Source: Deltaproteobacteria bacterium
GTDB taxonomy: Bacteria > Desulfobacterota > Dissulfuribacteria > Dissulfuribacterales > QOAL01
Assembly: GCA_027028245.1 (NCBI GenBank)
Contig: JALVJO010000038.1
Span: forward strand, 17,545 to 81,544
Length of the DNA: 64,000 nucleotides
Reading direction: 5' to 3'
Shown piece by piece: positions 28,470 through 48,884 of the stretch; positions within the stretch are counted from its first letter, which is position 1; every line of letters starts with the position of its first letter. The translations under genes and the position numbers were made by a program. The notes beneath the pieces are model-generated. The model was not told the origin of the DNA and made no database searches. It worked only from the letters and a program-made list of their open reading frames with translations.

Positions 28470-28482
28470 TTTACAGTTCCCC

Positions 28483-29946: not shown

Positions 29947-29968
29947 GGCACTTATTCGCCCGATCTCA

Positions 29969-33455: not shown

Positions 33456-33555
33456 ATGAAGGCCCCCCAAAAAGTCGAGCAGCATTTTTTAGCCCTGTAT
33501 GTTAAAATCTATAAAATCAAAATCTATAAAATTTGTTGAGCAAAGGAGAACAACC

Positions 33556-33963: not shown

Positions 33964-34974
33964 TCAGTCCCGGGTTAAAACCCGTCCTCCACGGACAGCA
34001 CGTACAAAATAACGCCTGTTCTTGAATCCGCCCCTGTAAGGCTTTCCGTTTGAAAAATCCACAACCCAGGCCATATAGGGTGCATCCTCGCAGGTCGTGC
34101 TAGACCAATAGGCTCCGGCCCTTGCTCCTGGAAAAAACCTGCTGTTTACAAGGGGCAGCTTATCACGGAAAACCACTATACTTAATAATTCCTTGATATT
34201 GGGAAGTCTCCAGTCTGTAAAACCCCCGAGCTGGAGACCTTGGCAATATTTTAGTGCCTGTTTCCATGTCATGGGTTCCTGTTCATCGGCCTGAAACATC
34301 AGGCCAGAGGTTTCATCAGTGACTGTTCCATTGGTGCTCTTTAGAAACCTTCCAGTGGTCAAAGACGCACCTTTTACCGCAAGAACCTTCAGTTTTTCAT
34401 CTATGTCAAATATTTTTACCTCATTGGCAGCAGAGCAGTATCCAATGGCTTCCCGGGTATTTCCAAGACTGGTAACAGACCAGAAACAATCACTTACATC
34501 ACCGGCTGCATTGAAAACAGCAAAGACTATTCCCTGGTCGGAACCGAATGAACCAAGGGTTTCAAGTTCATATATAGTGGGAAGTCTCCACTTTTCTCCA
34601 CTCTTACTACATTGGCTATCCACAGCATCCAGGGCCTCGCTCCAGGTTGCACCCTGGGAGTTTATTTTCCTCCAGGTCAAACCAGTAACCTGATCCAATA
34701 CGATGTACTCCTGACCCTGTTCAATCACCGAATAAGAAGGCTTATTGATGAGATAGTTTCCGTCTTCTCCGAAAAAGGCCTCACCGGGCTTAGGACATGG
34801 AATCAGCCTGGAATCGTCAAAACAATGTTGCTGGCCCGTATCCGGCAGGAACATCTCGACAGCTGTGGTATTCGTACATTCAAGCCCGTGGTCCTGGTCA
34901 CCAGCGTTGGCCTGAACAGTAATTATTCCTGCAGTCATGGTTACTGCAAGCCAAATATAAAGACACCTTTTCAT
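33964..34974 (-). CDS. Secreted protein with two DUF1566 (Lcl C-terminal) domains
   Basis: LPDTGQ..CFD start. DxxTGLxW...WRLPxIxEL...YWS occurs twice, ending in VRAVRGG. Confidence 0.85.
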   Translation of the reverse strand: MKRCLYIWLAVTMTAGIITVQANAGDQDHGLECTNTTAVEMFLPDTGQQHCFDDSRLIPCPKPGEAFFGEDGNYLINKPSYSVIEQGQEYIVLDQVTGLTWRKINSQGATWSEALDAVDSQCSKSGEKWRLPTIYELETLGSFGSDQGIVFAVFNAAGDVSDCFWSVTSLGNTREAIGYCSAANEVKIFDIDEKLKVLAVKGASLTTGRFLKSTNGTVTDETSGLMFQADEQEPMTWKQALKYCQGLQLGGFTDWRLPNIKELLSIVVFRDKLPLVNSRFFPGARAGAYWSSTTCEDAPYMAWVVDFSNGKPYRGGFKNRRYFVRAVRGGRVLTRD

Positions 34975-34990
34975 GCCGTCTCCATGCCTG

Positions 34991-35833
34991 CTATTTGACG
35001 ATACTGTGAGCCACACCGTGACACCTGCCGCAGGAACCGAATTTTTTGAACATGACAGAAGGATGAGGCTGGCCGTGGCATTGCCTGCACCTTTTTATGG
35101 TCTTGTGTTTGTCAGGATGACATCTCGTACAGGACAGGGCGGAATGTTTTGTTCGGCTTTTTTTCAGCATCTCGTAAGCCTTTCTGTGGCAGAGGGCACA
35201 ATCCTCTGGGGATCTTTCATTGGAATACCTGACATTCAGTGCCTTGTGAGCTTGATGACATGCCTTACAGCCGTCAAGCGAAGTCGCAACCGGTTTGAAA
35301 CCCGCCTTGACCAATACCACACCCTGATGAGGCTGGTGACATTCCAGGCATTCCGGAATGTAACCATGCCTGGTGTGGTGACAAACCGTGCAGTGAAACT
35401 CAGAATGCTTGGTGGTAAAGGTCATGACCTCTTTATACAGCTTTTGGTGGCAGACCCGGCACCCCTCTGCCAGATACAGGGTTGCCGGGATATCAAGGGG
35501 AGTGTGGGCCTCAGTGTGACAGCTGCTGCAATCTGTCAACTCTTTCCCGTGCGGATGCCCATGGCACCTGGAACACTTGGGTAAAATATCCTGATAATCT
35601 GTCTTCCCCGGTTTATAAACGTGAAATTTCCGGTGGCAGCTCCTGCATGCCACCCGTTTATGACCAGCCCCGTTTATCCTTAAAAGCTTTGCAATAATCG
35701 GATGACACCTCATACATTCCTGTCGTGTAAGCCTGTCAGGATGTGGAGGATAAAGCCCATCTGCCCAGACAAATCCTGCCCCTGCCAGGAAACACAGCCA
35801 AAGGATAAAGACTGCCTGCAGGTTCATGGACAT
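34991..35833 (-). CDS. Periplasmic dodecaheme c-type cytochrome
   Basis: Signal peptide; 12 CxxCH motifs counted. Confidence 0.93.
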   Translation of the reverse strand: MSMNLQAVFILWLCFLAGAGFVWADGLYPPHPDRLTRQECMRCHPIIAKLLRINGAGHKRVACRSCHRKFHVYKPGKTDYQDILPKCSRCHGHPHGKELTDCSSCHTEAHTPLDIPATLYLAEGCRVCHQKLYKEVMTFTTKHSEFHCTVCHHTRHGYIPECLECHQPHQGVVLVKAGFKPVATSLDGCKACHQAHKALNVRYSNERSPEDCALCHRKAYEMLKKSRTKHSALSCTRCHPDKHKTIKRCRQCHGQPHPSVMFKKFGSCGRCHGVAHSIVK

Positions 35834-37179
35834 GCTGCCCTTTTATCCATTCCGGGCACTAACAGTGCTCCCATGCATCTGTGATCAAAGGTCTTCAGAT
35901 ATGGTATATCCAGATACTTGCCGGCATCTACAGCCGGGGATGTGTCCAAAATGGAAAAATCATAATTGTCAGGATCAGAAAAACGCGGATCTGCCAGTAT
36001 ATCTCCGCGGCCTTCAGACGGACAACCACCGTACTGCATCCTCCTTGAAAGGAAGGCGTGGTCCCTGTCCCGGTTAAATTCCGGGATCTGGCCGTTTGCA
36101 AAAATAAGATTGCTGGAAAAGTTGCCGCAGCGGGTTACCAGAAGGCCTGTACGTATGTTGTAGACAATGATGTTATTTGCAATATCGGCCGTGGCATTGC
36201 TGTCAATTCTAACCCCTGCCCCTTCATTTCTGCTGCCGTTTGAAACTATGGTATTATGGTAAATATTAATGGGCCCTGGTGCGGAATAAGTATCCGTTGC
36301 GGAAAGACAGGCGATTCCCGATTCCAGGTTGTTGTAAATCCAGTTATTCATGATTCCCAGGGAACCTGTACAGCCTCCACGGATAAAAATGCCCGCCTTC
36401 TTGTTGAAAAAGATTCGGTTTTCAACCACGTCTACGACAGGAAAACCAGATGTCCTGCTTTGTCCGTAGACACCAGAAGTGCCGTTTGAGAAAATATCAT
36501 TTCCGGCTGCGGCCAGTCGTACTCGGCCTTCAACACGCAGGCCTGCCCTTGCATTTTCATGGATCTGATTCATTGAAGCGTATATATGCAGGCCACTATC
36601 AGAGGAGACTGCGGCATACAGGCCGGCCTGGCCGTTTAAGAATATATCGCTCTCTATTATCCCAACCGAGGTTTCCCAGAAGCTTTCTTGTTCAATCTTC
36701 CTGATTCGTATCCCAGCGCCCTGGTTGTTAAATATACCCAAGTGCCTGCAATCCAGTCTCAAAATATTCCTGGCATCCAAGCCTGCACGTTGATTTCCAT
36801 AAATTCTGGAGTTTTCCACGTAAACATTTGCATTTTTTTCAATTCTGATGCCCCCTCTGCCGTTTCCATAAATATCGCATTCTGTCACCCTTACAGGCAG
36901 GGAACCGCGAATTCTCACGCCGCTTCTGTTGTTTTCATATATTTCATTTTTTTCCATGACCGCCTTGAATATTCCGGGATCAGGCAAAAAATTCCCTGTC
37001 TTCATCTCCCTTTTCACACCATCGGTACTGGTGGAGCCTGCTGCAGGAAAAAAACTCTGGAACTGACGCTCCTGAAGACTGCAGCCGGAAACAGGAATCA
37101 GGGGCACCAGACACAGCAAAAGAATCAGGCGAAAGTTGCGTTTGGTGCTGCTGCTCGGCTGGCCTTTTTTCATATCCAT
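35824..37179 (-). CDS. Parallel beta-helix lipoprotein
   Basis: Lipobox VSGC, NxIxxNxxAGI repeats, and C-terminal ILADPRF...SPAVDAG. Confidence 0.82.
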   Translation of the reverse strand: MDMKKGQPSSSTKRNFRLILLLCLVPLIPVSGCSLQERQFQSFFPAAGSTSTDGVKREMKTGNFLPDPGIFKAVMEKNEIYENNRSGVRIRGSLPVRVTECDIYGNGRGGIRIEKNANVYVENSRIYGNQRAGLDARNILRLDCRHLGIFNNQGAGIRIRKIEQESFWETSVGIIESDIFLNGQAGLYAAVSSDSGLHIYASMNQIHENARAGLRVEGRVRLAAAGNDIFSNGTSGVYGQSRTSGFPVVDVVENRIFFNKKAGIFIRGGCTGSLGIMNNWIYNNLESGIACLSATDTYSAPGPINIYHNTIVSNGSRNEGAGVRIDSNATADIANNIIVYNIRTGLLVTRCGNFSSNLIFANGQIPEFNRDRDHAFLSRRMQYGGCPSEGRGDILADPRFSDPDNYDFSILDTSPAVDAGKYLDIPYLKTFDHRCMGALLVPGMDKRAACP

Positions 37180-37182
37180 TTG

Positions 37183-38628
37183 TTAAAAAAACCTCTTGGA
37201 CAGGCCTGCGTGTATGACATAATCTTCAATCCAGCCGTTCTCCTGTTTCACCAACGGAACCCTGCCGCCTATCTCAAGTTTCAGGCCTTCGGCTACAAAA
37301 AACTGGAGACAGGGGGAAATAAAGAGACTGTTTCCGCCTTTGTCGGTCACCCAGGTATCTACAGGCACAGGACCTCCCGGGAGCCGCTGGGGTGTTATGA
37401 CGTCCGGCCTTCCTTTCATTGCCAGGATGTGCTGCTTTCTTCTGACATGTCCCCGCCAACGGTAGTTGAATTCAAGATCTCCGTATACCGAAGGATTAAG
37501 GGGATACAGGAAGGCAGCTCCCATGTTGAATTCATCTCCGACATGCTGCCCGTTGGTAAACTTGTATGAAACGTTGATGTTTGTCTGGACTTTGTTCAGC
37601 TCTGTACTAAGGGCCAGTCCAGGCATGAAATCTACACTTCCGGAGCCCAGCGGAATCCAGCGCCAGACATCCTCCTGACGGACATCCTTGTCCTTGCCGA
37701 TAGCATTTTGATCTCCAGTGGGAATGGACAAAAGGTGAAAAAAGGCAAGATGAGTCTTTCTCTTGCCCCAAAGATGATATTTGGTGAAAAAAACAGTGTC
37801 GCCAAAGCCGGATACATTGAATTCTGCCTTTGCATCAGGGCCCGGCACCGACTCCAGATTCACATCCACTGTTTTCCAGAAATATTTCCCGATAATACCC
37901 ATGGTCAATTTGTCCGTCACCGCATACCGCATGCCCATAATCAAGGTCTTCACATGAACGCTGCGTTCTTCTGCCGGGTAGAACAACGGAGAGCCTTGCT
38001 CGTACATATCGTCGGCAATGGTTGCAGTCTGGTGCCAGAAACGGAACAATGTGTCAAAAAGAAGTTTTCCCCTGGGCATGGGAAAGGCACTGATTCGATT
38101 GAAGGACGGATTGGTAACCATCCTGTGGTAAGGAAGCAGGTTCAGATCGAAATTGTGCAGTCTTTTGTAAATGTATTGAAGATTATTCTGTGCTGCCCTG
38201 CAATCAGGAAAGCTTTCCAGGAGTTTCTCCAGCTGGCTGGCCGCTTCTTCCAGTTTTCCCTGCATCCGGTAGATTTCAGCCGTATTTAGCATGGAATCTA
38301 CCAGCAGCTGCTTTGAGCCCGGCTGAGACATGAGAAAATCGCTGGAAAGGATCTGGATCTTTACCTGTTCGAACTCTCTTCGGGCAAGCCCCAGCCGGCC
38401 CTGCTGCATGTGGATCTTTCCCAGCCTCAGCTTGGCTTCTACCAGAAGCGGACACAGGTCAAGGGCTTTTTCCAGGCAGTATGTCTGGCGGTGGACATCG
38501 TGAAATGAGGCGGTTGCCTCCTGCAGCCATTCCCAGGCCTTGTCGCAATCATCCGCTCGAAGCCCGCACGGGAAACTCCATTCCAATAAAATGGCCAGAA
38601 TTATTATTGTCTTTTCCAGACGTGACAT
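37183..38628 (-). CDS. TPR-containing outer-membrane beta-barrel (MetA-pathway 'transporter'-like)
   Basis: Signal peptide and N-terminal TPR-like helices. GFGD, SIPTG and LGSGS motifs, alternating beta strands, terminal Phe. Confidence 0.7.
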   Translation of the reverse strand: MSRLEKTIIILAILLEWSFPCGLRADDCDKAWEWLQEATASFHDVHRQTYCLEKALDLCPLLVEAKLRLGKIHMQQGRLGLARREFEQVKIQILSSDFLMSQPGSKQLLVDSMLNTAEIYRMQGKLEEAASQLEKLLESFPDCRAAQNNLQYIYKRLHNFDLNLLPYHRMVTNPSFNRISAFPMPRGKLLFDTLFRFWHQTATIADDMYEQGSPLFYPAEERSVHVKTLIMGMRYAVTDKLTMGIIGKYFWKTVDVNLESVPGPDAKAEFNVSGFGDTVFFTKYHLWGKRKTHLAFFHLLSIPTGDQNAIGKDKDVRQEDVWRWIPLGSGSVDFMPGLALSTELNKVQTNINVSYKFTNGQHVGDEFNMGAAFLYPLNPSVYGDLEFNYRWRGHVRRKQHILAMKGRPDVITPQRLPGGPVPVDTWVTDKGGNSLFISPCLQFFVAEGLKLEIGGRVPLVKQENGWIEDYVIHAGLSKRFF

Positions 38629-38637
38629 CTCCTTTAA

Positions 38638-39363
38638 TCAACTCTGCCTGCATATTGGACAGGATGGATTCCTGACAAGTTCCAGTTCCTGGAATTTCAT
38701 GGCCTCAAAATCCATGATTAACATCCGGCCGGAAAGTGCCATTTTCCTGCCGGAGAGAAACTTTAAGGCCTCCATGGCCTGCATACTGCCGGTGGCACTG
38801 GTTACTGCTCCAAGGACAGGGGTGCATTCGGATTCCGGTGCGGACGGAAACACACAAGAAATACAAGGGGTGTGGGGAGGCTGAAAGACTGCCACACGTC
38901 CTTCCATACCCCAGACAGCCCCGTGGATCATGGGAATCCCCTTTTTAAGGGCACACTGGCTCAATGCATAACGGGCCTCAAAGTTATCCAGGCAGTCTAT
39001 TATAATCTGGGCGTCGCCCACCAGTTCATTGACATTTTCAGAAGTGATCTTTTTATCGATTGTTTCGATTCCAGAGTCCGGGTTCAATCCCCTGAGGCAT
39101 TCTTTGGCAGAACTCGTCTTTTTGGCCCCTATATGAACATCCCTGTGAAGAAACTGACGATTAAGATTGGTTATGTCCACCATGTCAGAATCACATATCC
39201 TGATTATGCCTATTCCTGCAAGTGCCAGGTTGAGTGCTACTGGACAACCCAGTCCTCCTATCCCGGCAACAAAAACCCTGCTGTTCCTCAGCCTTACCTG
39301 GGTGTCAACCCCCCAGCCCTCCAGCAGGATCTGCCTGTTGTATCTATCAAATCTTTCCCTCAT
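38638..39363 (-). CDS. ThiF/MoeB/HesA E1-like adenylyltransferase (no rhodanese domain)
   Basis: RYNRQI, GIGGLG, DxDxVDxTNLNRQ, DCLDN, and two CxxC pairs (PCISC, SCPIC). Confidence 0.93.
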   Translation of the reverse strand: MRERFDRYNRQILLEGWGVDTQVRLRNSRVFVAGIGGLGCPVALNLALAGIGIIRICDSDMVDITNLNRQFLHRDVHIGAKKTSSAKECLRGLNPDSGIETIDKKITSENVNELVGDAQIIIDCLDNFEARYALSQCALKKGIPMIHGAVWGMEGRVAVFQPPHTPCISCVFPSAPESECTPVLGAVTSATGSMQAMEALKFLSGRKMALSGRMLIMDFEAMKFQELELVRNPSCPICRQS

Positions 39364-40803
39364 TTATGCGGCACTGCATGATCCATCTGGACTGGCCAAG
39401 GGACACAGCCTTTCAACTTCAACATCCTGCTCGCCTAGATCTTTTAAAACCTTTGCCGCAGCACCAGCTGCAAGTCTTTCTGAAAATCCAACATGGCTCT
39501 CCGGACTTATTATTGCCCTGATTTCCTCCTTGGAATATGAGCTGGCTATTCCCTCCTTTTTAAAGAGGATATCAAGAAATTCTCCCCTTTTTTCAGCAGC
39601 CTCCATGGCGGCTTCGTAAATCAACTGGTGGGCCCTGTCCTTCCCCATTTTTTCCCCGATATAAAACATCAAGGCCTCGCTGCATATCAGGGGTGCTGCA
39701 TTCTTAACATTATCACGGATCCTGTCCGTATGCACAACCAGCTCGTTCAAAATAAATTTCATTTGAGAAAGGGCAGAACAGGTATACTGGCATGAATCCG
39801 TTATGGCTGCCCATTCCACCCTGACAGCCCTGTAATCCCTCTCGTGTTCATTTATAAGGCACTCCATGCCCAGACCGGCTTGAGCCCTGACAAGCTTGGC
39901 AAGTACTGCCACCTGTTCGCACATTTCCGGGTTTCTCTTGTGGGGCATGGTACTGGAACCTATTTTACCATGGTGAAAAGGTTCTTCCATTTCACCCAGA
40001 CTGCTTCTGGAAAGCCCCCTTATTTCTTCAGCAATCTTGGCAAGGGTTCCACATATCAAAGCCAGCAAATTTAAAAATTCCGAAAAACGGTCCCTGGAGT
40101 TATGCCACGGAGTATCAGGCGGTTTTAGCTCCAGGCTGCGGGAGAACCTCTCCAACAGCTGCGGTGCCATTGGACCGAATGAATCCATGGTACCGACCCC
40201 TCCAAAGAGCTGGCTGACCAGGATTCTTTTTCTTGTCTCTTCCAGCCTTTCAAGGTGCCTGGCCAGCTCATCAAGCCATACGGCCATCTTGAGACCCAGT
40301 GTCATGGGAAGTGCATCCTGGGTGTGAGTACGTCCTACTGTTACCACGTCTTTGAAATGTTCCACCAAGGCAGCCAGCCGCCTCATTATAGAGACAAGAT
40401 CCCTGTGAACTATTAAAAGGACATCCCTGATCTCAAGAACCTGGGCGGTATCCTGGATATCCTGCGTAGTTGCCCCGTAGTGTATATATCCCCGGCTGGA
40501 CTTTCTGCATTTCACAGCCAGGGCGTTCAAGAGGGGCAGGAGGGAATGACTGGTACTCTCAAGCTCTCTTTTTACTGTCTCAAGATCCAGTTTTCTTATG
40601 TCTGCATTGGAGCTTATGTCACGGGCTGCACTGTCTGGAATAATGGCCAATGAGGCCTGAGTCACTGCCAATACGGCCTCGACATCAAGCCAGCGCTGAT
40701 ATCTGTATAAATCGCAAAAGATCCTCTTTACCTCAGGTGTTGCATATCCTCTGGAATAAAATCTTGAGTCTGTTATATGGCTTGCAGGACTGCACCTGGT
40801 CAT
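39364..40803 (-). CDS. Adenylosuccinate lyase/fumarase superfamily lyase B
   Basis: HYGATTQD, GRTH, GGVGT, signature GSSTMPHKRNP and HERD. Confidence 0.88.
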   Translation of the reverse strand: MTRCSPASHITDSRFYSRGYATPEVKRIFCDLYRYQRWLDVEAVLAVTQASLAIIPDSAARDISSNADIRKLDLETVKRELESTSHSLLPLLNALAVKCRKSSRGYIHYGATTQDIQDTAQVLEIRDVLLIVHRDLVSIMRRLAALVEHFKDVVTVGRTHTQDALPMTLGLKMAVWLDELARHLERLEETRKRILVSQLFGGVGTMDSFGPMAPQLLERFSRSLELKPPDTPWHNSRDRFSEFLNLLALICGTLAKIAEEIRGLSRSSLGEMEEPFHHGKIGSSTMPHKRNPEMCEQVAVLAKLVRAQAGLGMECLINEHERDYRAVRVEWAAITDSCQYTCSALSQMKFILNELVVHTDRIRDNVKNAAPLICSEALMFYIGEKMGKDRAHQLIYEAAMEAAEKRGEFLDILFKKEGIASSYSKEEIRAIISPESHVGFSERLAAGAAAKVLKDLGEQDVEVERLCPLASPDGSCSAA

Positions 40804-40874
40804 ATTCTTGGCCTTTGCACGTGGAAAAATGGTTTTAAATGTTTAAGGCAGCAGTCTGCCTCAATTGCAACAAA

Positions 40875-42248
40875 CTAAAGTTCCTGGGGGTCTTCAGCCC
40901 TTGATCTCCTGATTTGGCCTGCAACCTGGTTTATGATATTTACCGCCTGGCCCGTGTAGGCTTCGGGACTGTCCAGCATAAAAAGATCTCCTTTACTGAA
41001 AAGACCTCCTATCCCGGGATCTTCCATCACCAGCTCGCCAATGTTTCTGTCTTCTTTTTTTGCCTTTTCCACGATTTTGTTCAACTTTTCCATTGCATTC
41101 ATCTTGCCTATCTTTTCTCCCAGCCTGAAAAGAAGCCATTCCCCAGCTATAAAATCACCTTTAGATCTCAAGTTTTCGTACATTCGTTTAGTGTCTATTT
41201 CCAATGAGGACAAGATTGATTTCATATAAGAGGCAGCCGCACCTGTATAAATGCATATTTGAGGCATTGACAGCCATTCGGCCCACAAGCACCTTGGATC
41301 CCTTTCGTGTTCATGACACATGCTCTCTATTGCAACCGCAGAGAGAGCTCGAATGTGTTTTGAAAGTGCCTGAACCCTTTGACACAAAACGGGATTACGC
41401 TTGTGTGGCATGGTAGAACTTGCAGGCTGTCCCGGGGCCGCTTCAAAGAGTTCGGCGATCTCCGATTTCTGAAGTTGGTAAATCTCGTTTGCAATCTTTG
41501 AAAACGTGGAAGAAAGCATGGCCAGACAGCAGGCTGTATCCGCGATTGCATCGCGCCGCGTATGCCATGCCAATGGGTCATGCTCGAGGCCCAAAAGCCT
41601 CAATGTATGGCTTGCAATTTCAAGGGCGTTTTCTCCGAGAGCTGCAAGGGTCCCAACCGCACCGCCGAACTGACCATATCTAAGCCCGGAATGGCGATCT
41701 CTTATCCTATGGATATGGGACCTGATCTCCTTAAGCCAGACGGCAGTCTTGAGACCGAATGTGATTGGAAGGGCCTGCTGACCATGTGTTCTTCCTGCCA
41801 TGGGTGTGTCGGCGTACCGTTCTGAAAGAAGCAGGCAATTTGTTTCTATTTCTCGAAGATCCTTGTACATAAGTCCAAGGCTCAGGCGGATTCCAATGAT
41901 TTCAGCAGTATCAATGACGTCCTGGGTTGTGGCACCGTAATGAACATATTGTCCAGCCTCGCTGCTGCAGGCATGTCTCAAGGCCTGTAAGAGAGGGACC
42001 AAAGAATTCCGGCTTTTTCCATAACCTTTTCTGATTAAAGACTTATCCAACCGGTCAAAACGGGCATTTTCAACTATCTCCCGAGCTGCAGTCCCGGGGA
42101 TAATGCCCTTGTCTCCAAGGGTTGAAGCAAGCGCTGCTTCAAAATCAAGCCATCTCTGGAAAACAGCTTCTTCTTCGAATATCTCCCGTTGTTCCGGCGT
42201 ACTGAAAACATCCTGATTCAGGTGAAAATCAATCGGATGAACAGACAT
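40875..42248 (-). CDS. Adenylosuccinate lyase/fumarase superfamily lyase A
   Basis: HYGATTQD, GRTHGQQA, GAVGT, signature SSTMPHKRNP and HERD. Confidence 0.88.
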   Translation of the reverse strand: MSVHPIDFHLNQDVFSTPEQREIFEEEAVFQRWLDFEAALASTLGDKGIIPGTAAREIVENARFDRLDKSLIRKGYGKSRNSLVPLLQALRHACSSEAGQYVHYGATTQDVIDTAEIIGIRLSLGLMYKDLREIETNCLLLSERYADTPMAGRTHGQQALPITFGLKTAVWLKEIRSHIHRIRDRHSGLRYGQFGGAVGTLAALGENALEIASHTLRLLGLEHDPLAWHTRRDAIADTACCLAMLSSTFSKIANEIYQLQKSEIAELFEAAPGQPASSTMPHKRNPVLCQRVQALSKHIRALSAVAIESMCHEHERDPRCLWAEWLSMPQICIYTGAAASYMKSILSSLEIDTKRMYENLRSKGDFIAGEWLLFRLGEKIGKMNAMEKLNKIVEKAKKEDRNIGELVMEDPGIGGLFSKGDLFMLDSPEAYTGQAVNIINQVAGQIRRSRAEDPQEL

Positions 42249-42357
42249 GCTTAAGCCTCTTCCATAGGGTTAAAAACTGATCTTGATTCCATCTTACATG
42301 GAATCCCTGATATTAAGTAAGCGTCAGGATGCTCCCAAGGACAACATCGACTGCAGG

Positions 42358-42927
42358 TCAACTGATAATAATGGGGACCTCTTTTTCCCTAATGCCTTCA
42401 TAAAAGGCCCGAATAATCGGCCGTGATGGATCCACCAAGGAGATAATAAAGCTGAAAAGATTCGAATTTTTGGCCAGAATCATGTCCAGTTTGGTGGGCG
42501 TATCGCGCAGCCGATCATGATCCCATGGAACAATGTGCATGTGATAGGTGCCTATGGCAAGCAAATCATCTCTGTCGCATATTTCGTAACACTCCCTCAA
42601 TTCTTCAGGGTCGGTTATCCATCCCCTCTGGGAAAGCGGGGTCTTGGAGGCCACGGCATATCTGTTCATAACGTCATCCATATAGCTCTTAAGTGGCTCG
42701 TGCATCCTGGCATTTTTCTTAAAATAAAAAATTTTCAGTACATGAGCCGCGTCACCATCCAATGTCCCTGCAAGCATGCCATAGGCTCGTTTCACCCTGG
42801 TTTCACCCGGCAGATATTCTCCCGCCAGTTTTCTTCGGCAGTGCGACTTTACATCATCCCAGAGGGCCTCAGGGAGAAATATGTTTTTAAGACTTGATAA
42901 ACCTGTCACAGAATTCGACCTTGTCAA
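42358..42927 (-). CDS. Divergent JAB/MPN (Mov34) domain protein
   Basis: RAYGMLAG (compare EACGLLAG), IGTYHMH...TPTKLD (compare GxYHSH...PSxxD) and FIISL. Overlaps the ThiS-like gene by 4 nt. Confidence 0.6.
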   Translation of the reverse strand: MTRSNSVTGLSSLKNIFLPEALWDDVKSHCRRKLAGEYLPGETRVKRAYGMLAGTLDGDAAHVLKIFYFKKNARMHEPLKSYMDDVMNRYAVASKTPLSQRGWITDPEELRECYEICDRDDLLAIGTYHMHIVPWDHDRLRDTPTKLDMILAKNSNLFSFIISLVDPSRPIIRAFYEGIREKEVPIIIS

Positions 42928-43187
42928 CCCCCCGCTATGGGAATAATAAGAGAAATCTCATCGTCTTGTTTAAGACTTATCTGAGACCAGTCCTTTTGCT
43001 GGACCTTGACAAGTCTGCCGTTTACAAAGATGGAAAGAAGCTTAGGCTGCTCAAAGAGCACGTTTAGACCTTCATGCATCTGGACAAGTCTTTTCATGGT
43101 CCCTTCCAGGTCAGGGGCATCGATGACAATTTCTCGCTCGTTGTCAGTATATTTTCTATAAGGAAATGGAATTATAACGCGTGCCAT
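42924..43187 (-). CDS. MoaD/ThiS-family ubiquitin-like sulfur carrier
   Basis: 87 aa from ATG 43187; IFVNG, LKQDDEISLIIPIAGG-stop. Confidence 0.9.
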   Translation of the reverse strand: MARVIIPFPYRKYTDNEREIVIDAPDLEGTMKRLVQMHEGLNVLFEQPKLLSIFVNGRLVKVQQKDWSQISLKQDDEISLIIPIAGG

Positions 43188-43194
43188 GATATTC

Positions 43195-44058
43195 TTATCG
43201 TGATGATTCAAGCACTTCTGAAAGGGCCTGGGGAATATATGCCAGAATCTCCGAAATCTGCGTAGCAGGATTAGGTTGAGCAAGCTCTCCTGCTCTCCTG
43301 TTTGCCCTGCCTGCCACCATGCATGCCTCCACCGGAGTCTTTCCAGCGTAAATCAGGCCGCTGATCATGCCGGTGATAAGGTCCCCGGTACCTCCTACCG
43401 CCTCCATGGTTTCTACACATGGAGAATCGATTGTATCCACCACATTGCCGTCATGACAGATGTAATCCACTTTCCCCTTTACAAACATGGTCTTTGGCGC
43501 ATTTTTAGCCGCATAGGCCCGTTGAATCAGCTCCGTGACATTTTCTTCCATATGGAAAATAGCACCTCTGGTAAAAGCAGGATGGTCGGCCTTTTCATCA
43601 GCCAAAAAGGTCAGTTCTCCGATATCAGGTGTAAAAACATCGTAAAATACGGCATCTCCACCCGCCTTGGCCACATACATGGAACCGGCATCTGCTATGA
43701 GCACCGGTTTCCTGGGCATTTTTTTTACTGATTGCAGCACCCGTTTATTCAATTTCAAATCAGGCATTATGTAATGGAGGGTCATTACACTAAGCTGGAG
43801 AATGGGAAGATTTTCCTCGAGATATCGATAAATGGCCTCGCTTCCTTCCCTTTTTCCTATATCACCGGCTACAAGACCTACTGGTCTTTCACATCCCAAC
43901 AGCTCGCAAACCTGGCAGGCTGCAGTCATCATGGCTTCGTTGCCCCTGTTGATTCCAAGTTTTCTGCCGCCAATCTCAATACCTTCAGGAGAATAATCGA
44001 TGTGGCCCATGACAAGGGAAAGACCTTCCACGGGTACAGATCCTGCTAAAAGCAACAT
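43195..44058 (-). CDS. Ribokinase-fold protein (YjeF-C / NAD(P)HX dehydratase-like)
   Basis: LIADAG, FTPDIGEL, VKG..D and GGTGDLITG motifs. Confidence 0.75.
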   Translation of the reverse strand: MLLLAGSVPVEGLSLVMGHIDYSPEGIEIGGRKLGINRGNEAMMTAACQVCELLGCERPVGLVAGDIGKREGSEAIYRYLEENLPILQLSVMTLHYIMPDLKLNKRVLQSVKKMPRKPVLIADAGSMYVAKAGGDAVFYDVFTPDIGELTFLADEKADHPAFTRGAIFHMEENVTELIQRAYAAKNAPKTMFVKGKVDYICHDGNVVDTIDSPCVETMEAVGGTGDLITGMISGLIYAGKTPVEACMVAGRANRRAGELAQPNPATQISEILAYIPQALSEVLESSR

Positions 44059-44061
44059 CCG

Positions 44062-44607: not shown

Positions 44608-44654
44608 TATCACCTTACCCCTATAAATTTTTCCTAAAAACAGGTTATCTGGCA

Positions 44655-45731
44655 CTACCTGACAGCCGCTGGAGACCTCCGATAATACATGACTAAAACT
44701 ACACATGCCATGAGCCCTGCCAGCACGGCAATCTTTCCGTAAAAAGTCGGCCCTGCAGACGTTGATCTTATTGACCAACCAATGACCAAAGCCGCACCTG
44801 TGAGCATGCCAAAACACGTAACAGCCGAATCCACGTCCCCCTGGCCTGCCTTGATCACCTGTCTGAAGGGACAACCATCTATTATTACCGAGGCCAACCC
44901 TACCAGCATCATGGCTAAAAATGTCCACAGATGACTGGTATGAGAGGCGGGTTGACCGTTCAGACCCAGATGAAACTGTCCCAGCACAAGGCTGAGCACC
45001 AATGCCCCCAGAAACGCAGCCAGCACCCCCTTAAACAAGGTGCCCTCGCGAACAAGAAACAGGTTTCTGAAGCCACCGGTTATGCACAATCCTGAACGCT
45101 GTGCCAGACAGCCGATTACGAAGCTCACTGCCAGGGAGATAGGTACAGGTGCGTGCAGTGCGGCAGGACCAGTCTGGCCGAATACGATGAAGGCAGGCTT
45201 CATAAATAGGAAAAGAAGCAGGTTCAGGGCAAACAACGGAAAGATGTATCCGTTTATCTTGGGAAGCTTTCTCACTCTATCAAGGGCAACCCCGGCCTTT
45301 ATATACCTTGCCCCAAGCCATACACCAAGCATAAGACCCAGGAGGGCAGCGCAGGCCGTCAGGTCACCTGCAGCCAGCCGGTGAATCATCTTAATTGGGC
45401 ATCCTATAAACACCGCACAGCCCACTATCATAAAAAAACCCAGAAAAAAACGTATAATGGGAGAAGAGCCTCCAGTCACCTGAAAACGCCTTGTTGCCGT
45501 TGCCATGGCAAATGATCCAAGTACAAAACCGATCAATTCCGGCCTGAGATAGCTCATTCTGACATGAGAGTGAAGCTGCATGGCCCCGGCAAGGTTTTCC
45601 AGGAAACAGGAAAGACAGATACCTGAATTTACAGGGTTGCCCAGGTATGAAAGAACGACACAGCCGGCGCCAAGGACAGCACCGGTAATAATGGAAACGT
45701 CAAAGAAGCTCTTAAACACCTCTATTCGCAT
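44655..45731 (-). CDS. yedE: YedE/YeeE-family sulfur/selenium transporter (selenium-metabolism type)
   Basis: GNPxNxGICxxCF, YLRPEL.G, FIGCP, QRSGLC..GG and DGCPFRQ motifs; about 9-10 TMs. Confidence 0.85.
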   Translation of the reverse strand: MRIEVFKSFFDVSIITGAVLGAGCVVLSYLGNPVNSGICLSCFLENLAGAMQLHSHVRMSYLRPELIGFVLGSFAMATATRRFQVTGGSSPIIRFFLGFFMIVGCAVFIGCPIKMIHRLAAGDLTACAALLGLMLGVWLGARYIKAGVALDRVRKLPKINGYIFPLFALNLLLFLFMKPAFIVFGQTGPAALHAPVPISLAVSFVIGCLAQRSGLCITGGFRNLFLVREGTLFKGVLAAFLGALVLSLVLGQFHLGLNGQPASHTSHLWTFLAMMLVGLASVIIDGCPFRQVIKAGQGDVDSAVTCFGMLTGAALVIGWSIRSTSAGPTFYGKIAVLAGLMACVVLVMYYRRSPAAVR

Positions 45732-46285
45732 CCTCCGGCTATTCTGCGTTGAAGGTAGTAGATATCGTTTATGGCAGTTTGAATCTGTTTATCTTCAGGT
45801 TTCAGTTTTTTCTCCCTGTTCAGCTTTCCTCTGGCACTTGAAATCAGCTTCATTATTTCGTCACCTATATAGAGAGGCGTGGTCTTGTCAACGTAATCCG
45901 GATCCAATTCTACAGCGCGGCGATAGCTGCGGACTGACTTAACAATTTGTCCCTGCTGGCTGTAAAGCCTTCCAAGCAGTACAAGGCCGTAGGCATCATC
46001 GGGATGATCTTTTAGGATTTTTAAAACCTTGGAAACGGCCTGATCGAAATCCCCTTTTTTTTCAAGATAAAGGACATCCTTATAAAGCCAGGCCTTCTTG
46101 GCCAGCTGTTCTTCATATCTCTTCTGAAGGGTATTTATACCTGGTGAGCCGTGGCTAGAGTCGGCCTTCAATTCAAGCTCGTGCTGCACAATCATGCCGG
46201 CAGTAACAGCAACAAGCACAATCAGAACAGCAGTATTCACTCGGAAAAACCAATCCACCCCTTCATTCTCCATATGGTTCGCCAT
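45722..46285 (-). CDS. Membrane-anchored TPR protein with C-terminal -IAGGCE
   Basis: One N-terminal TM and TPR repeats (LLGRLY..YRRAVELDPDY). Overlaps the yedE start. Confidence 0.8.
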   Translation of the reverse strand: MANHMENEGVDWFFRVNTAVLIVLVAVTAGMIVQHELELKADSSHGSPGINTLQKRYEEQLAKKAWLYKDVLYLEKKGDFDQAVSKVLKILKDHPDDAYGLVLLGRLYSQQGQIVKSVRSYRRAVELDPDYVDKTTPLYIGDEIMKLISSARGKLNREKKLKPEDKQIQTAINDIYYLQRRIAGGCE

Positions 46286-46324
46286 TTATGAAGTGGAGCA
46301 GCAATCTTGATCTAGATCCAGGGA

Positions 46325-47293
46325 CTAAAACCGTCCGGCTCCTGAAACGGGTTCATTGGCAAAGTTGCATATCCTGACTCGACCAAGGCCCTTATCACTG
46401 GATGCATCCTTGATGCTGCTTCTAATCTTTTTCAAATCAGTACTTCCCCACCAGTTATAGCGGGCATCAACATCCTGCTCCTGACCTTCCAAGAGGGAGA
46501 TGTTATAATCTGAGTTATCAAAGATATTGTTCTCTCTTAATATGAGCCGGGGGACGGAATACAAGATGATCCCTTTTGCGTTCTTGAAAATATTGTTGAA
46601 GCGGATGCAGCATGGACCGCTTTTCTTGGTAAAGATGCCGAAGAATTTATTTTCTGTGATTTGATTATGGGATATTATAGAATTGGCAGATCCCCCGATC
46701 AATATGCCGCCGCCATTTTGCCAGATCCTGTTGTAAACAACGGGTACAGCACATTTTATATCCATACCCCGTATATTTTTCATTCCTATGGCAACACCAT
46801 TGTCGTGCAGCCTGCAGCGGCTGACCAGCACCTGTGCTGAATGGCAGTGTATTGAGGTATGACCGTAACTGATGCTGCAAAACTCCAGGATATTGTCCCT
46901 GCTGCCGATGAAATTAATGGCTCCCCAGTCTGAGACAGACGGCCTTTTTTCAGCGCTGGTAAAGGTGATCATCTTGTCCCTTAATCCCTGGGCGATAAGT
47001 CTGCCCCTGACAATCAGTTCGGCCCTGGGGAAATGATTTGCCTTATCAAGACTGAGTTTATCAGGCCCGAAATCCTTAATCTTTTTAAATCTGATATTGG
47101 TCCCGGGAAGGATTATCAGAGTAGCCCCCCTGTTTATCCTCACATCCCCCTTCAGGAGGATGTCTCCCTGCCACACCGTGTCAGAAGTTATTTCCGTCTT
47201 GCTGTTTATTTCCTGGACTGCATAAGCTGGAGATGAATAAAGGAGAAAAAAAACATTCAGAACAAAGAAAAAGAATCTTGCCAGCTTTACCAT
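46325..47293 (-). CDS. Secreted parallel beta-helix protein
   Basis: Signal peptide; DTVWQG..GATLIILPGT, ITFTS...DWGAI and DARYNWWG motifs. Confidence 0.82.
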   Translation of the reverse strand: MVKLARFFFFVLNVFFLLYSSPAYAVQEINSKTEITSDTVWQGDILLKGDVRINRGATLIILPGTNIRFKKIKDFGPDKLSLDKANHFPRAELIVRGRLIAQGLRDKMITFTSAEKRPSVSDWGAINFIGSRDNILEFCSISYGHTSIHCHSAQVLVSRCRLHDNGVAIGMKNIRGMDIKCAVPVVYNRIWQNGGGILIGGSANSIISHNQITENKFFGIFTKKSGPCCIRFNNIFKNAKGIILYSVPRLILRENNIFDNSDYNISLLEGQEQDVDARYNWWGSTDLKKIRSSIKDASSDKGLGRVRICNFANEPVSGAGRF

Positions 47294-47823
47294 TAAGATC
47301 TCTCCGCTCCGGATTTGGTCAGCATCTTAATCTCGTCTTTTATCTTCTGCTTGTCTGCAGGCCCTTGGGCAAGGGTTTCAGCCCTGGAAAATTCCTGTTC
47401 AGCATCCACCTTCCTGCCCATTTTCTCAAAAACCACGGCCTTATGTACATGAACCAGGATATCAGAAGAATTTACCTTTTCTGCAATGTTGAAATATTGC
47501 ATTGCCTTTTCAAGGGCATTCTTTTTCATGAAGACCAGCCCGAGACCATCCAACGCATTGAAGTTACGGGAATCCTTTTTCAGAACCTTTTCGAATTGTT
47601 TCTGAGCTTCTTCCATCTGTCCTGCCAGCCAGTATGCCATGCCAAGCTTGTTCCTGGTTTCCAGGTCATCAGGGTTCATGAAAAGGACCATGTTGTACTG
47701 CAAAATCTGTACGGAAGGGGGGAACTTAGATATGTCACCGTGGGCAAACACCTGGGAGGGGCCGATACACATTGCAATACAGGCCAATATACAGACTGCA
47801 GCTTCAAAACATTTCATGGTCAT
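47293..47823 (-). CDS. Periplasmic TPR protein
   Basis: Signal ending VFA-HG; TPR repeats (RNKLGMAY, ALDGLGLVF). Confidence 0.82.
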   Translation of the reverse strand: MTMKCFEAAVCILACIAMCIGPSQVFAHGDISKFPPSVQILQYNMVLFMNPDDLETRNKLGMAYWLAGQMEEAQKQFEKVLKKDSRNFNALDGLGLVFMKKNALEKAMQYFNIAEKVNSSDILVHVHKAVVFEKMGRKVDAEQEFSRAETLAQGPADKQKIKDEIKMLTKSGAERS

Positions 47824-47874
47824 CAGATCAGTATCAGAATCAAATTCCGCCTAAAACCAACGTCTCTTTCACAG

Positions 47875-48807
47875 TCAATCTTTACGATATGGAGCCATAT
47901 TGCAGAGTTTCAGCCTATCGCGTATGGGGTCATATTCTTTATCTACGGCCTTGACGAAGCCGTCTATCCACATGCGCTTAAGCACCTTTAGTACCTCCCC
48001 GTCTACCAGGACTGTCTCATCCTTTTTCAAATTTAAAAGCAATTCCAAAACCTGTTCCTGAAGAACAGGATCAACCTGGGGCATGGCACCAATGGTGCAG
48101 TATGGCATGGGTATGCTCTCGGCTATAATGTTGAAATCCTGTTTGCGAACCTTATGTTCTTCAATCATTTGGTCCAGATCGATCCTGGGAGCCGCCCCCA
48201 CATCATATTTGCCAAAATAAACTCCATAAATCACCTTTTCATGCTTTGCAGAGCCCATGGGGATGGCATAAAGTGAAAAATCGATTTCCGGGTCAAATCC
48301 ATGCTTCAAAAGCATTGCATATTGGGCCATAAAGCCGAAGGGAGCCAGGGCAGGTCCGAAAATCATGCTCTTTCCCTTCATGTCCTTTATGGTCTTTATA
48401 CCGCTGTCTTTCAGCGAAATTATGGTTCCTGTTGACTTGTAGCCATTTCGTCCGCGAACATCTACTGCCAGAAGCTTCATGCCGAATCTCTTATTGAGCA
48501 TTATGGCGATTATGGAATTGACATGGACAAAATCCACCTTCTTTTGCTGGGCCAGATCTTCAAATTCGAACGTATTTGCCAGGACCATTTCGAATTTCCT
48601 GCCTGTCTTTTCAGAAAGATAGGCAGTAAGAGGAGCAAATCTTGCCCGGGACTGTTCCCGGCTGTCGCAAATCATGAAGCCTATGCGGACAGGTTTTTGA
48701 CTGGTGAACTTGGAGCCCTTATCTTCTTTGCTGCACCCAGAAAGGGCGAAAATAAAAACACCTAAAATTATTGTTATTGCCTTGATATATATATTATTGG
48801 GATCCAT
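47875..48807 (-). CDS. PhnD-like substrate-binding lipoprotein (orphan)
   Basis: Lipobox LSGC; RFAPLTAYLSEKTG, SGIKTIKDMKGK and HEKVIYGV..G.YDVG motifs. No ABC permease or ATPase nearby. Confidence 0.82.
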   Translation of the reverse strand: MDPNNIYIKAITIILGVFIFALSGCSKEDKGSKFTSQKPVRIGFMICDSREQSRARFAPLTAYLSEKTGRKFEMVLANTFEFEDLAQQKKVDFVHVNSIIAIMLNKRFGMKLLAVDVRGRNGYKSTGTIISLKDSGIKTIKDMKGKSMIFGPALAPFGFMAQYAMLLKHGFDPEIDFSLYAIPMGSAKHEKVIYGVYFGKYDVGAAPRIDLDQMIEEHKVRKQDFNIIAESIPMPYCTIGAMPQVDPVLQEQVLELLLNLKKDETVLVDGEVLKVLKRMWIDGFVKAVDKEYDPIRDRLKLCNMAPYRKD

Positions 48808-48855
48808 ATCAATGATAATCTGCCCGCGTTTCCGTTAGTACAAAAATACTAGTCT

Positions 48856-48884
48856 ATTTTCCCAAACAAAAACATTATTGTCAA
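48856..48884 (-). promoter_or_regulatory. Putative sigma70 promoter heading the 16-gene run
   Basis: Minus strand TTGACA-17 nt-GAAAAT with extended TG, about 50 nt before the ATG. Confidence 0.5.

Follow-up and report, generated by a model that had tools for sequence, protein, structure and literature searches.

A conserved gene cluster of Desulfobacterota that joins a selenium-type YedE/carrier/kinase trio to ThiS, ThiF, a JAMM-fold protein and two fumarase-superfamily lyases: a candidate chalcogen-trafficking and biosynthetic system

The window considered here is the whole 64,000-nucleotide stretch of DNA that was analysed, positions 17,545 to 81,544 of contig JALVJO010000038.1 from a Deltaproteobacteria bacterium (assembly GCA_027028245.1). 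On its minus strand, 16 open reading frames (ORFs) span positions 33964–48807, with a spacing that ranges from a 26-nt overlap to a 109-nt gap. An earlier note, made from the letters of the window, had read these genes as one operon that connects the uptake of sulfur or selenium to a ubiquitin-like carrier relay, two fumarase-type lyases and a barrel and cytochrome module. The window ORFs were scanned with Pfam and NCBIfam, and all scores below are in bits against the curated cut-off. The scan confirmed the domains of the 16 co-oriented genes, in the order given in the note and with overlaps or gaps of at most about 110 nt. The 16 genes stand, but two more had been missed at the upstream end, where the conserved unit reaches to 51279 with genes for a DASS transporter and an OpuAC-like protein, making 18 genes in the window (Table 1), and so had the gene for a glutamate dehydrogenase-like (GDH-like) enzyme that is found in most relatives. 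A 341-nt gap lies between the two added genes and the remaining cluster.

Table 1. Genes and other features of the cluster, listed from its upstream end, with the convergent gene that follows it.
Feature	Position in window	Strand	Basis
DASS-family anion/di-tricarboxylate:Na+ symporter	49906..51279	-	Pfam Na_sulph_symp 100.9, CitMHS 96.5 bits; TIGR00785 104 vs cut-off 198.6
OpuAC-like half substrate-binding protein, N-terminal signal/anchor	49149..49802	-	Pfam OpuAC 32.4 bits; N-terminus read
Promoter-like TTGACA-17-GAAAAT, TG extension	48856..48884	-	10/12 matches
PhnD-type periplasmic substrate-binding lipoprotein	47875..48807	-	Pfam Phosphonate-bd 169.4 bits; lipobox LSGC read directly
Secreted TPR protein	47293..47823	-	TPR_1/TPR_2; signal peptide read
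Periplasmic NosD-like right-handed beta-helix protein	46325..47293	-	Pfam NosD 51.6, Beta_helix 51.5 bits
Membrane-anchored TPR protein ending GGCE (TPR-GGCE)	45722..46285	-	Pfam TPR matches
YedE-family channel, 'type B' paralogue of selD-linked YedE	44655..45731	-	TIGR04112 394.2 vs cut-off 200
Extended DUF3343 (Se/S carrier), C-terminal extension of ~90 aa	44062..44607	-	Pfam Se_S_carrier 48.7 bits, residues 21-87
YjeF_C/ThiM-like ribokinase-fold enzyme	43195..44058	-	Pfam Carb_kinase 51.3 bits
ThiS/MoaD-type beta-grasp carrier, free GG end	42924..43190	-	Pfam ThiS 29.3 bits vs 22.5
JAB-like: divergent JAMM/MPN-fold metallohydrolase	42358..42927	-	No Pfam/NCBIfam family; predicted fold
Lyase A, aspartase/fumarase superfamily, ADSL/CMLE/XcbD/Tad1 clade	40875..42248	-	Lyase_1 130.9 bits
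Lyase B, same clade as lyase A	39364..40803	-	Lyase_1 154.5, ADSL_C 51.8 bits
ThiF/MoeB-type E1 adenylyltransferase without rhodanese domain	38638..39363	-	Pfam ThiF 239.8 bits; two CxxC pairs
Outer-membrane barrel with N-terminal TPR domain	37183..38628	-	TPR_2, Phenol_MetA_deg 29.5 bits
Beta-helix lipoprotein	35824..37179	-	Beta_helix 83.1, NosD 50.2 bits; lipobox VSGC
Dodecahaem c-type cytochrome, 280 aa	34991..35833	-	12 CxxCH; Cytochrome_C7 39.7 bits
Secreted Lcl_C (DUF1566) protein, least conserved member	33964..35016	-	Lcl_C 156.5 bits
Convergent NikL-like (nickel/cobalt energy-coupling factor accessory) gene, possible associate outside the cluster count	33499..33948	+	NF058648 78.9 vs cut-off 100

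Of 61 genomes of the order to which the window genome belongs, 12 have the JAB-like gene, and the type B YedE and the extended carrier, two members unrelated to it and to each other, were found in exactly the same 12. Gene order was preserved in the flanking loci of 11 relatives searched by tblastn with the window proteins. A wider scan, with one genome per species, gave 33 Desulfobacterota loci, many of them cut by contig ends. These came from metagenome-assembled genomes (MAGs) labelled Deltaproteobacteria, Thermodesulfobacteriota, Desulfobulbaceae or Desulfocapsa, from a Seep-SRB2 MAG, from two Candidatus Electrothrix, and from records named 'uncultured bacterium' and 'uncultured Thermodesulfatator sp.'. 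The JAB-like gene is present in all 33 loci, the kinase in 30, the carrier in 29, ThiS in 28 and YedE in 24; the lyase block is represented by lyase A in 30, lyase B in 25 and ThiF in 22. Upstream, the counts are 23 for TPR-GGCE, 21 each for the NosD-like protein and the PhnD-type substrate-binding protein, 20 for the OpuAC-like protein, 19 for the secreted TPR protein and 12 for the DASS transporter, which also occurs in the cable-bacteria-family loci L123–L125. The envelope genes are sparser (beta-helix lipoprotein 11, barrel 10, cytochrome 8, Lcl_C 3). Nineteen loci extend for at least 7 kb upstream of the carrier. The block from the substrate-binding protein to YedE lay directly upstream in 16 of these; two of Seep-SRB2 type were without it and had YedE type B on another contig, and one had YedE and beta-helix genes. 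The earlier note had supposed that the YedE block and the ThiS/JAB/lyase block would be found together elsewhere and that their synteny would repeat across the phylum, which is borne out by the 16 of 19 loci, the shared 12 genomes and the 33 recurrences.

More distant relatives came from a metagenome scan with a sub-alignment of the JAB-like family, which gave 50 loci. Here the JAB-like gene was adjoined by the GDH-like gene in 27 and by a lyase in 26; in the 19 longer loci (≥4.5 kb), each of these partners was found in 15. Several arrangements recur. In L062, L063, L069 and L070, the NosD-like, YedE and TPR-GGCE genes diverge from a row of JAB-like, GDH-like, lyase A and lyase B genes, which continues with an RcnA/NicO-like transporter, the OpuAC-like protein, a TPR protein and the substrate-binding protein. 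In L072, L074, L075, L079, L081 and L098 the order is JAB-like, a CarboxypepD_reg protein, NosD-like, GDH-like and lyases, with giant MtrC-like cytochromes nearby. (In L072, L074 and L079, such giant multihaem proteins, similar to MtrC/MtrF, are encoded a few kb ahead of the JAB-like gene; the one of L074 has about 1176 aa.) The distant locus L080 reads ThiF, JAB-like, lyase, GDH-like, lyase, a TrmO_N-like gene, ThiS, DASS, substrate-binding protein and permease.

The JAB-like protein had no match in Pfam or NCBIfam at E ≤ 0.01. Its AlphaFold2 model, calculated with an alignment of 36 relatives, had a predicted local distance difference test (pLDDT) score of 94.9, and the top Foldseek matches, all with a probability of 1.00, were 2kks (DSY2949), 5lda (Pyrococcus furiosus JAMM1-SAMP2), 8tyx (a bacterial ubiquitin-like protein (Ubl)-deubiquitinase) and Rpn11. 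By its predicted fold, though not by any sequence model, it is a JAMM/MPN-fold protein, as its name in the earlier note had implied. The zinc-ligand pattern HxH...D is present, with H129 and H131 invariant and D148 conserved in at least 90% of the 36 sequences; the spacer is 13 residues longer than in what we take to be the canonical JAMM motif, and Thr145 occupies the position expected for Ser. The family is rare: of 1.84 billion cluster representatives, 88 matched it at E ≤ 0.001. In three members (P0053, P0071 and P0043) the domain is fused to ThiF, and other fusions, among P0003 and P0017, comprise one to an S-adenosylmethionine methyltransferase and one to a phosphopantetheine-binding carrier-protein domain. 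At L103:9024-10073, ThiS and ThiF themselves form one reading frame, in which a linker after AIAGG joins the two, next to JAB-like, lyase and GDH-like genes, an arrangement that would provide an obvious processing job for a JAMM enzyme. One copy from the cable-bacteria family (G179:C125:1011-1553) is in three pieces, with a TAA stop in one and a TGA in another, and is probably a pseudogene.

All 28 ThiS orthologues end in PIAGG followed directly by the stop codon. ThiS falls below the cut-off for the NCBIfam equivalogs thiS, moaD_arch and SAMP1, and ThiF for every NCBIfam equivalog (MoeB, ThiF, UbaA and MoeZ). Pfam and NCBIfam found none of the usual clients of such a carrier (ThiG, MoaE, CysM, TtuA or aldehyde:ferredoxin oxidoreductase) among the cluster genes, in agreement with the earlier note. 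The enzymes encoded between ThiS and ThiF include the two lyases, which are 35–38% identical to each other. The top NCBIfam match of lyase A is XcbD (400 against a cut-off of 600), with purB (TIGR00928) at 269.1 against 326.2; lyase B scores 546 against 626 with PRK08937, 479 against 600 with XcbD (NF052536) and 325.0 against 326.2 with purB. The translations contain a GSSTMPHKRNP or ASSTMPHKRNP loop and a GRTH(T/G)Q histidine segment, which we take to be the catalytic motifs of the aspartase/fumarase superfamily. For both lyases, the nearest structures are a structural-genomics 'fumarate lyase', the trans-aconitate decarboxylase Tad1, 3-carboxymuconate cycloisomerases, adenylosuccinate lyases and CreD; for lyase A, the nearest PDB entries are Tad1, CMLE and 3c8t. 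These neighbours point to a clade that carries out C–N or C–S addition or elimination, lactonization and decarboxylation on unsaturated di- and tricarboxylates.

Two more specific identities were considered for the lyases and set aside. As the housekeeping purB of purine synthesis, they miss the TIGR00928 cut-off, and a 575-bit purB is located on another contig. As XcbD of bacterial coenzyme M synthesis, they miss the cut-offs, and the domains of XcbB, XcbC, XcbE and XcbA are absent among the cluster genes. In most loci outside the window's genus, a GDH-like gene of about 400 codons lies between the JAB-like gene and lyase A. Its product is a divergent member of the Glu/Leu/Phe/Val-dehydrogenase family.

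The cluster YedE scored 394 bits on the selenium-type model TIGR04112, compared to 28.9 on that of the thiosulfate transporter TsuA, and it is the sole TIGR04112 match in the window genome. It does not lie near selD, which in this genome is on another contig (G000:C120:23164-24087, L057). That selD contains an in-frame TGA, as do nearly all selD matches in the order, which suggests that SelD itself is a selenoprotein here. TIGR04112 matches occur in 15 of the 61 relatives and fall into two groups, one of 370–394 bits in exactly the 12 genomes with the JAB-like gene and one of 482–487 bits in five genomes of a single genus; the high-scoring YedE adjoins selD in all four genomes examined. The carrier profile behaves similarly, with matches in 19 of the 61, of at least 308 bits in the 12 JAB-like-bearing genomes and of 204–224 bits in nine genomes of the genus with the high-scoring YedE. 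The window genome has one carrier only.

The selD-linked copies form a row of their own. In G053, G055, G027 and G045 (L127:2638-8230, L128:5809-10091, L129:4974-9000 and L130:5696-10500), a paralogous YedE-carrier-kinase row (41/47/45% identity to the window proteins) is followed after the kinase by a porin-like gene, with selD within about 2 kb. 'Porin-like' is our reading of the sequence, and this gene beside selD had no sequence match in the PDB. The whole array looks like an apparently undescribed operon for selenium uptake and delivery. G053 and G055 keep both trios, the cluster type and the selD-linked type.

The kinase family, with members in 80 of the 301 genomes searched across the phylum, gives a second and broader link. 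It lies on the same contig as selD and no more than 7 kb from it in at least 13 of these 80 genomes, a lower bound that is based on 150 of the 295 selD matches. Among those matches, the distance is within 300 nt in at least eight genomes (G255, G224, G294, G333, G261, G326, G410 and G435), no more than 1.2 kb in G315, G265 and G378, and 3.6 and 6.7 kb in G319 and G267. The adjacencies span ten family labels, related genomes not being independent, and their rate is far from what chance would give. Taken together, the paralogous trio and the kinase family beside selD favour selenium over sulfur. Judged by these gene neighbourhoods, the YedE/carrier/kinase trio is a selenium-associated module of which the cluster contains an apparently specialised paralogue. 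The earlier note had left the choice between sulfur and selenium open; the selD-linked paralogues now sharpen it towards selenium.

The carrier gene is always directly upstream of the kinase gene. Its product has three invariant cysteines, in YRTGCDL, NISGGGCPDVP and SLCAYSL (24 of 24 sequences), and its predicted model has a pLDDT of 85.2. The fold had no match in the PDB at E ≤ 0.001, the top structures being ACT-like domains of aspartate kinase with template modelling scores of 0.25–0.33, and the carrier profile matched nothing among the PDB sequences. No TGA (selenocysteine) codon was found at the conserved cysteine of the TPR-GGCE tail in 23 orthologues or of the carrier in 29. Assignment of the kinase as an NAD(P)HX dehydratase (YjeF_C) was rejected, with 42.5 bits against 129.85 on TIGR00196; only the Pfam superfamily model passes. 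In the open-access literature, we found no paper that links the YjeF_C-like kinase family to selenium or pairs the carrier with the kinase.

On the periplasmic side, the PhnD-type substrate-binding protein falls below the cut-off of all NCBIfam equivalogs, including the putative selenate-binding protein TIGR04553 (47.6 against 250) and the TtrS sensor domain, and the Pfam scan of the 18 genes found no ABC permease or ATPase in the cluster. All 23 TPR-GGCE orthologues end in YYLQ(R/S)(R/V)(I/L)AGGCE. The N-terminus of this protein is very short, with K or R before the single helix and acidic residues after it, so that, by the positive-inside rule, we infer an N-in topology with the TPR domain and the cysteine tail in the periplasm. 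The gene for the NosD-like protein accompanies those for YedE and TPR-GGCE in three distinct arrangements. The protein was rejected as NosD proper (TIGR04247, 24.7 against 300; no nosFY neighbours). At the other end of the cluster, the barrel, beta-helix lipoprotein and cytochrome follow ThiF in only six of the 14 loci that continue for at least 3 kb past it; two others have the beta-helix only, and six have unrelated genes. In L047 and L053, the module is inverted yet adjacent, directly after lyase B. We therefore consider the envelope module, which the earlier note had counted as part of the system, to be accessory.

Our tentative interpretation is that the cluster encodes a dedicated chalcogen-trafficking and small-molecule biosynthetic system and that the chalcogen is most likely selenium. 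Its basis is the parts list, the predicted JAMM fold, the conservation of the linkage and the association of the trio with selenium, and from these we infer every step of the pathway that follows. The PhnD-type and OpuAC-like substrate-binding proteins, the two TPR proteins (one with the -GGCE cysteine tail) and the NosD-like beta-helix would capture the chalcogen and pass it to YedE. In the cytoplasm, the three-cysteine carrier and the YjeF_C-like kinase would receive it, as the paralogous trio would do ahead of SelD. ThiF would act in place of SelD: ThiS would be adenylated by it at the GG end and then converted to a seleno- (or thio-) carboxylate by the chalcogen bound to the carrier. The two lyases would then generate an unsaturated di- or tricarboxylate, to which they would add the chalcogen as a nucleophile, much as XcbC and XcbD act in bacterial coenzyme M synthesis, and the DASS transporter may move the organic acid or the product. 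In most relatives, the GDH-like enzyme would aminate a neighbouring 2-oxo group, permitting an acyl shift to nitrogen, and the JAMM hydrolase would free a seleno or thio amino-dicarboxylate from ThiS, as Mec+ does with CysO-cysteine. Such a release needs a neighbouring amine, which the GDH-like enzyme of the relatives would supply. The barrel, beta-helix lipoprotein and 12-haem cytochrome could form an optional front end that reduces or mobilizes extracellular oxidized or insoluble chalcogen. Much of the argument is carried by an analogy of gene order: the selD arrays read carrier-kinase-porin-selD and the cluster reads carrier-kinase-ThiS-JAMM-lyases-ThiF, so that in both the carrier-kinase pair appears to be succeeded by an ATP-using activator.

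Several observations weigh against this interpretation. With the query used, no copy of the GDH-like gene was found in the window genome, which is 96% complete, and the amination and JAMM release step thus cannot run here as written. In the profile alignment to 2kks, an arginine (R47) lies opposite the Glu of EACGLLGG, at the position of the canonical JAMM glutamate; E42, five residues upstream, is invariant in 10 close orthologues. Many distant loci contain the triad of JAB-like, GDH-like and lyase genes without a local ThiS, ThiF, YedE or kinase, and the triad may thus work independently of the relay. The envelope module is absent from six of the 14 loci that have room for it. With respect to selenium, selD was found in 57 of the 61 relatives and in 275 of the 301 genomes of the phylum, so that co-occurrence with selD cannot discriminate sulfur from selenium. 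Furthermore, with one YedE and one carrier in the window genome, the trio could simply feed SelD. To our knowledge, no selenocarboxylate occurs in biology. Among sequencing runs, the window DNA was found in hydrothermal-vent metagenomes of three studies, two runs being possibly its source, and in no RNA run.

The same machinery could handle sulfur instead. YedE type B would then import thiosulfate or sulfane sulfur, the carrier would hold a persulfide and ThiS a thiocarboxylate, and the lyases would make a thiol-bearing di- or tricarboxylate or amino acid of the mercaptosuccinate or beta-mercapto-glutamate type. We regard this version as rather doubtful. All characterized ThiS/ThiF/JAMM relays that we know of (CysO/MoeZ/Mec+, QbsCDE, HcyS) carry sulfur, and the hosts are sulfur-cycling Desulfobacterota of vent sediments. 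As far as the available parts of the respective papers go, YeeE/YedE relatives transport thiosulfate or sulfane sulfur (PMC13293266), XcbD makes a C–S bond (PMC9457059), and DUF3343 proteins are not selenium-specific (PMC5322559), the last being a point against the selenium assignment. The cluster YedE, however, fits the selenium-type model far better than that of TsuA, the nearest paralogues of YedE, carrier and kinase sit beside selD, and the kinase family does so repeatedly. If selenium is accepted, the cluster might still build no product and serve acquisition and salvage: the trio would feed SelD, and the lyases, GDH-like enzyme and JAMM protein would degrade organoselenium or organosulfur adducts of the succinated type after their import and so liberate the chalcogen. 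The window genome's only YedE, carrier and kinase do sit in the cluster, with selD elsewhere, and the paralogous trio is plainly linked to SelD; this lyase superfamily works in both directions, and among known pathways is one that pairs an S-(2-succino) lyase with a deacylase. We nevertheless think this explanation unlikely. TIGR04112 has no match in 46 of the 61 relatives though 57 have selD, and YedE is thus not needed for selenium use in these bacteria; the retention of both trios in G053 and G055 speaks for distinct roles; and the ThiS/ThiF pair would be without a role in a purely catabolic route.

The remaining alternatives deny that the genes share one task. Two or three independent operons, for uptake, for the cytoplasmic enzymes and for the envelope cytochrome, might simply abut without a common pathway. 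This would account for genome G061, which keeps the blocks at three places, for the missing envelope block in some loci with room and for the gap after the two upstream genes. It seems to us quite improbable because three unrelated members have one pattern of presence and absence in 61 genomes and because the blocks stay neighbours in at least three arrangements, the envelope block being adjacent even where it is inverted; that related genomes are not independent samples in such phyletic and linkage counts weakens this argument and does not cancel it. It is also conceivable that ThiS, ThiF and the JAMM protein form a ubiquitin-like system for protein conjugation or regulation, with the other genes as neighbours that have other tasks. 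The Pfam and NCBIfam scan found no E2-like or other conjugation factor among the cluster genes, the tightest partners of the JAMM gene in the longer metagenome loci are the lyase and the GDH-like enzyme, and most of those loci have no local ThiS or ThiF. A conjugation system is, therefore, most improbable, in spite of the JAMM fold with its deubiquitinase-type top matches, the free GG end of ThiS and the presence of an E1 enzyme.

The nearest known kind of system is the ThiS/ThiF/JAMM chalcogen relay, as in CysO/MoeZ/Mec+ and QbsCDE. In Mycobacterium tuberculosis, CysO, MoeZ, Mec+ and CysM carry out a thiocarboxylate-dependent synthesis of cysteine; QbsC/D/E of thioquinolobactin synthesis and HcyS/F/D of Wolinella are related. 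As in the CysO system, a GG-ended carrier of ThiS type, an E1 and a JAMM protein are encoded together, and the carrier would be expected to deliver an acyl-chalcogenide and the JAMM protein to free the carrier or the product. The cluster differs from it in several respects. The Pfam scan of the 18 genes found no pyridoxal phosphate enzyme domain, so that there is no counterpart of CysM or MetY, nor is there an acid-activating ligase; two lyases (plus the GDH-like enzyme in relatives) take their place. The cluster ThiS already ends in GG, and the JAMM protein belongs to a rare, divergent family with no Pfam match and with Arg at the canonical Glu. Finally, the chalcogen is apparently supplied by the selenium-type YedE/DUF3343/kinase trio with periplasmic helpers, not by a rhodanese.

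Individual parts resemble other pathways. In coenzyme M synthesis by Xanthobacter autotrophicus (XcbB-E), XcbC forms an acrylate by eliminating phosphate, and XcbD adds cysteine to this sulfoacrylate, according to the available part of the description (PMC9457059). There too, two enzymes of the aspartase/fumarase superfamily act in series, and in NCBIfam XcbD ranks first among the neighbours of lyase A and second among those of lyase B; the cluster, in contrast, has no XcbC-type (ASL-like), ComA/XcbB, XcbE or XcbA protein, and the nucleophile proposed here would be a protein-bound chalcogenide rather than cysteine. YedE, YedF and DUF3343 have been listed as candidate selenium-trafficking genes (Lin et al. 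2015; PMC5322559, as far as available). These genes, and the YeeE/YeeD thiosulfate pair, share with the cluster a YedE-family channel beside a small cysteine-bearing carrier. Unlike them, the cluster contains neither YedF nor TusA, its carrier is a two-domain, three-cysteine protein that is always paired with the kinase, and its channel has further companions in a NosD-like beta-helix and a cysteine-tailed TPR protein. Maturation of nitrous oxide reductase by NosDFY(L) presumably offers another likeness, with a NosD-type beta-helix beside an inner-membrane transporter in a periplasmic metal or chalcogen context; the cluster has no NosF, NosY, NosL or NosZ, and the membrane partner is YedE. In selenoneine synthesis, SenC is reportedly a SelD homologue and the donor selenophosphate, used via a selenosugar. 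The cluster has no SelD homologue, and its activating enzyme would be ThiF with ThiS. Like the SenA/B/C pathway (bioRxiv 10.1101/2022.04.13.486033), it would be a dedicated means of placing selenium in a small molecule and not in protein or tRNA. Lastly, in the available portions of two papers (PMC13293266, PMC8780430), the same groups of bacteria have the YTD or YeeE-TusA-DsrEFH type II cluster, known from sulfur disproportionators and cable bacteria, in which a YeeE/YedE channel is joined by sulfur carriers of the cytoplasm and which feeds dissimilatory DsrC/DsrAB. We rejected it as an identity for the cluster, which has a different YedE paralogue and different carriers from TusA and DsrEFH; the YTD cluster has no ThiS, ThiF, JAMM protein or lyases.

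The earlier note had known of no characterized pathway with this combination, and we likewise found no description of it in the open-access literature searched. A review of ThiF enzymes (PMC12596934) does not contain the words lyase, JAMM, selen, fumarate or glutamate dehydrogenase. The gene tables of cable-bacteria omics papers, such as the lists of core or expressed genes of PMC13293266, may include cluster genes.

Selenium is known to enter biology through selenophosphate, which leads to selenocysteine, selenouridine, the cofactor of molybdenum hydroxylases and selenoneine. If the interpretation favoured here is correct, the transfer of imported selenium to an E1-activated ubiquitin-like carrier would represent a new trait of selenium utilization and a new carrier chemistry. 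Even with sulfur, this would be the first ThiS/ThiF/JAMM relay that has lyases of the fumarase superfamily as its clients. The kinase and the two-domain DUF3343 carrier next to YedE and selD in many Desulfobacterota may, in addition, reveal unrecognized steps of selenium delivery to SelD. The hosts, among them cable bacteria, Seep-SRB2-type syntrophs that partner methanotrophic archaea, and sulfur cyclers of Desulfocapsa type, are ecologically relevant. Enrichment cultures of cable bacteria exist, according to the available parts of the literature, and make the proposal testable.

Of 119 genomes of the cable-bacteria family, 38 gave a match to the JAB-like gene and the other 81 none. The parts of the cluster can be scattered or close together. 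Genome G061, which holds the Candidatus Electrothrix laxa locus, has them at three separate places: a row of JAB-like, GDH-like, lyase and ferredoxin genes; a carrier-kinase pair that is 73% and 67% identical to that of the window, with uninformative neighbours (amidase, HAD and polyamine genes); and a seven-gene operon of DASS, OpuAC-like, TPR, substrate-binding protein, NosD-like, TPR-GGCE and YedE genes, in which YedE is 69% identical. In G151, by comparison, the parts all lie within about 15 kb (L124). Orthologues of ThiS, ThiF, the carrier and the kinase from this family are 66–75% identical to those of the window. In named Electrothrix and Electronema records, the kinase orthologues bear no annotation other than sugar kinase or NAD(P)H-hydrate dehydratase.

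Cable bacteria have periplasmic fibres with nickel bis(dithiolene), for which the available parts of three reports (PMC13534509, PMC11247825, bioRxiv 2023.05.24.541955) name no biosynthetic genes. One could imagine that the product of the cluster is a chalcogen-rich organic ligand that is exported, or assembled on the NosD-like and TPR scaffold, as a nickel (or cobalt) redox cofactor of chalcogenolate or dithiolene type. The cluster would then be the missing machinery, or an evolutionary precursor of it, for the conductive nickel bis(dithiolene)-type material of cable bacteria and for related structures in the Seep-SRB2-like partners of methane-oxidizing archaea. This idea is very doubtful, and we mention it on account of a few hints. 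The uptake and cytoplasmic modules are all present in genomes of the cable-bacteria family, and multihaem cytochromes recur beside the cluster. A NikL-like gene abuts the cluster in the window, and is in the same place in L024 and L032 only. An RcnA/NicO-like transporter (L063:9150-9890, 139.9 against a cut-off of 195) lies between lyase B and the OpuAC-like gene, in a group found in three metagenome loci. Against this, the cluster is not limited to cable bacteria, the JAB-like gene was found in only 38 of the 119 genomes of their family, and the selenium signal is without a counterpart in the published Ni/S chemistry. The NikL-like gene showed no similarity to the CarboxypepD_reg protein of the metagenome loci. 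No NikMNQO genes lie beside it in the window.

The promoter-like site that the earlier note had placed ahead of the PhnD-type gene is indeed there, but it adds little to the argument, since matches of this type are hardly above chance in the region (35 found, compared to 25.1 ± 5.7 in shuffled sequence). On both flanks, the cluster is bordered by polysaccharide genes (26475–33123 and 51672–53872), including those for glycosyltransferases, a WecG/TagA-type transferase, a sugar transferase, a B12-binding radical SAM (S-adenosylmethionine) protein, a GNVR chain-length protein and a Poly_export/SLBB protein. At positions 24001–26000, the G+C content drops to 0.343, compared to 0.43–0.50 in the adjoining 2-kb windows and 0.41–0.52 across the remainder of the stretch.

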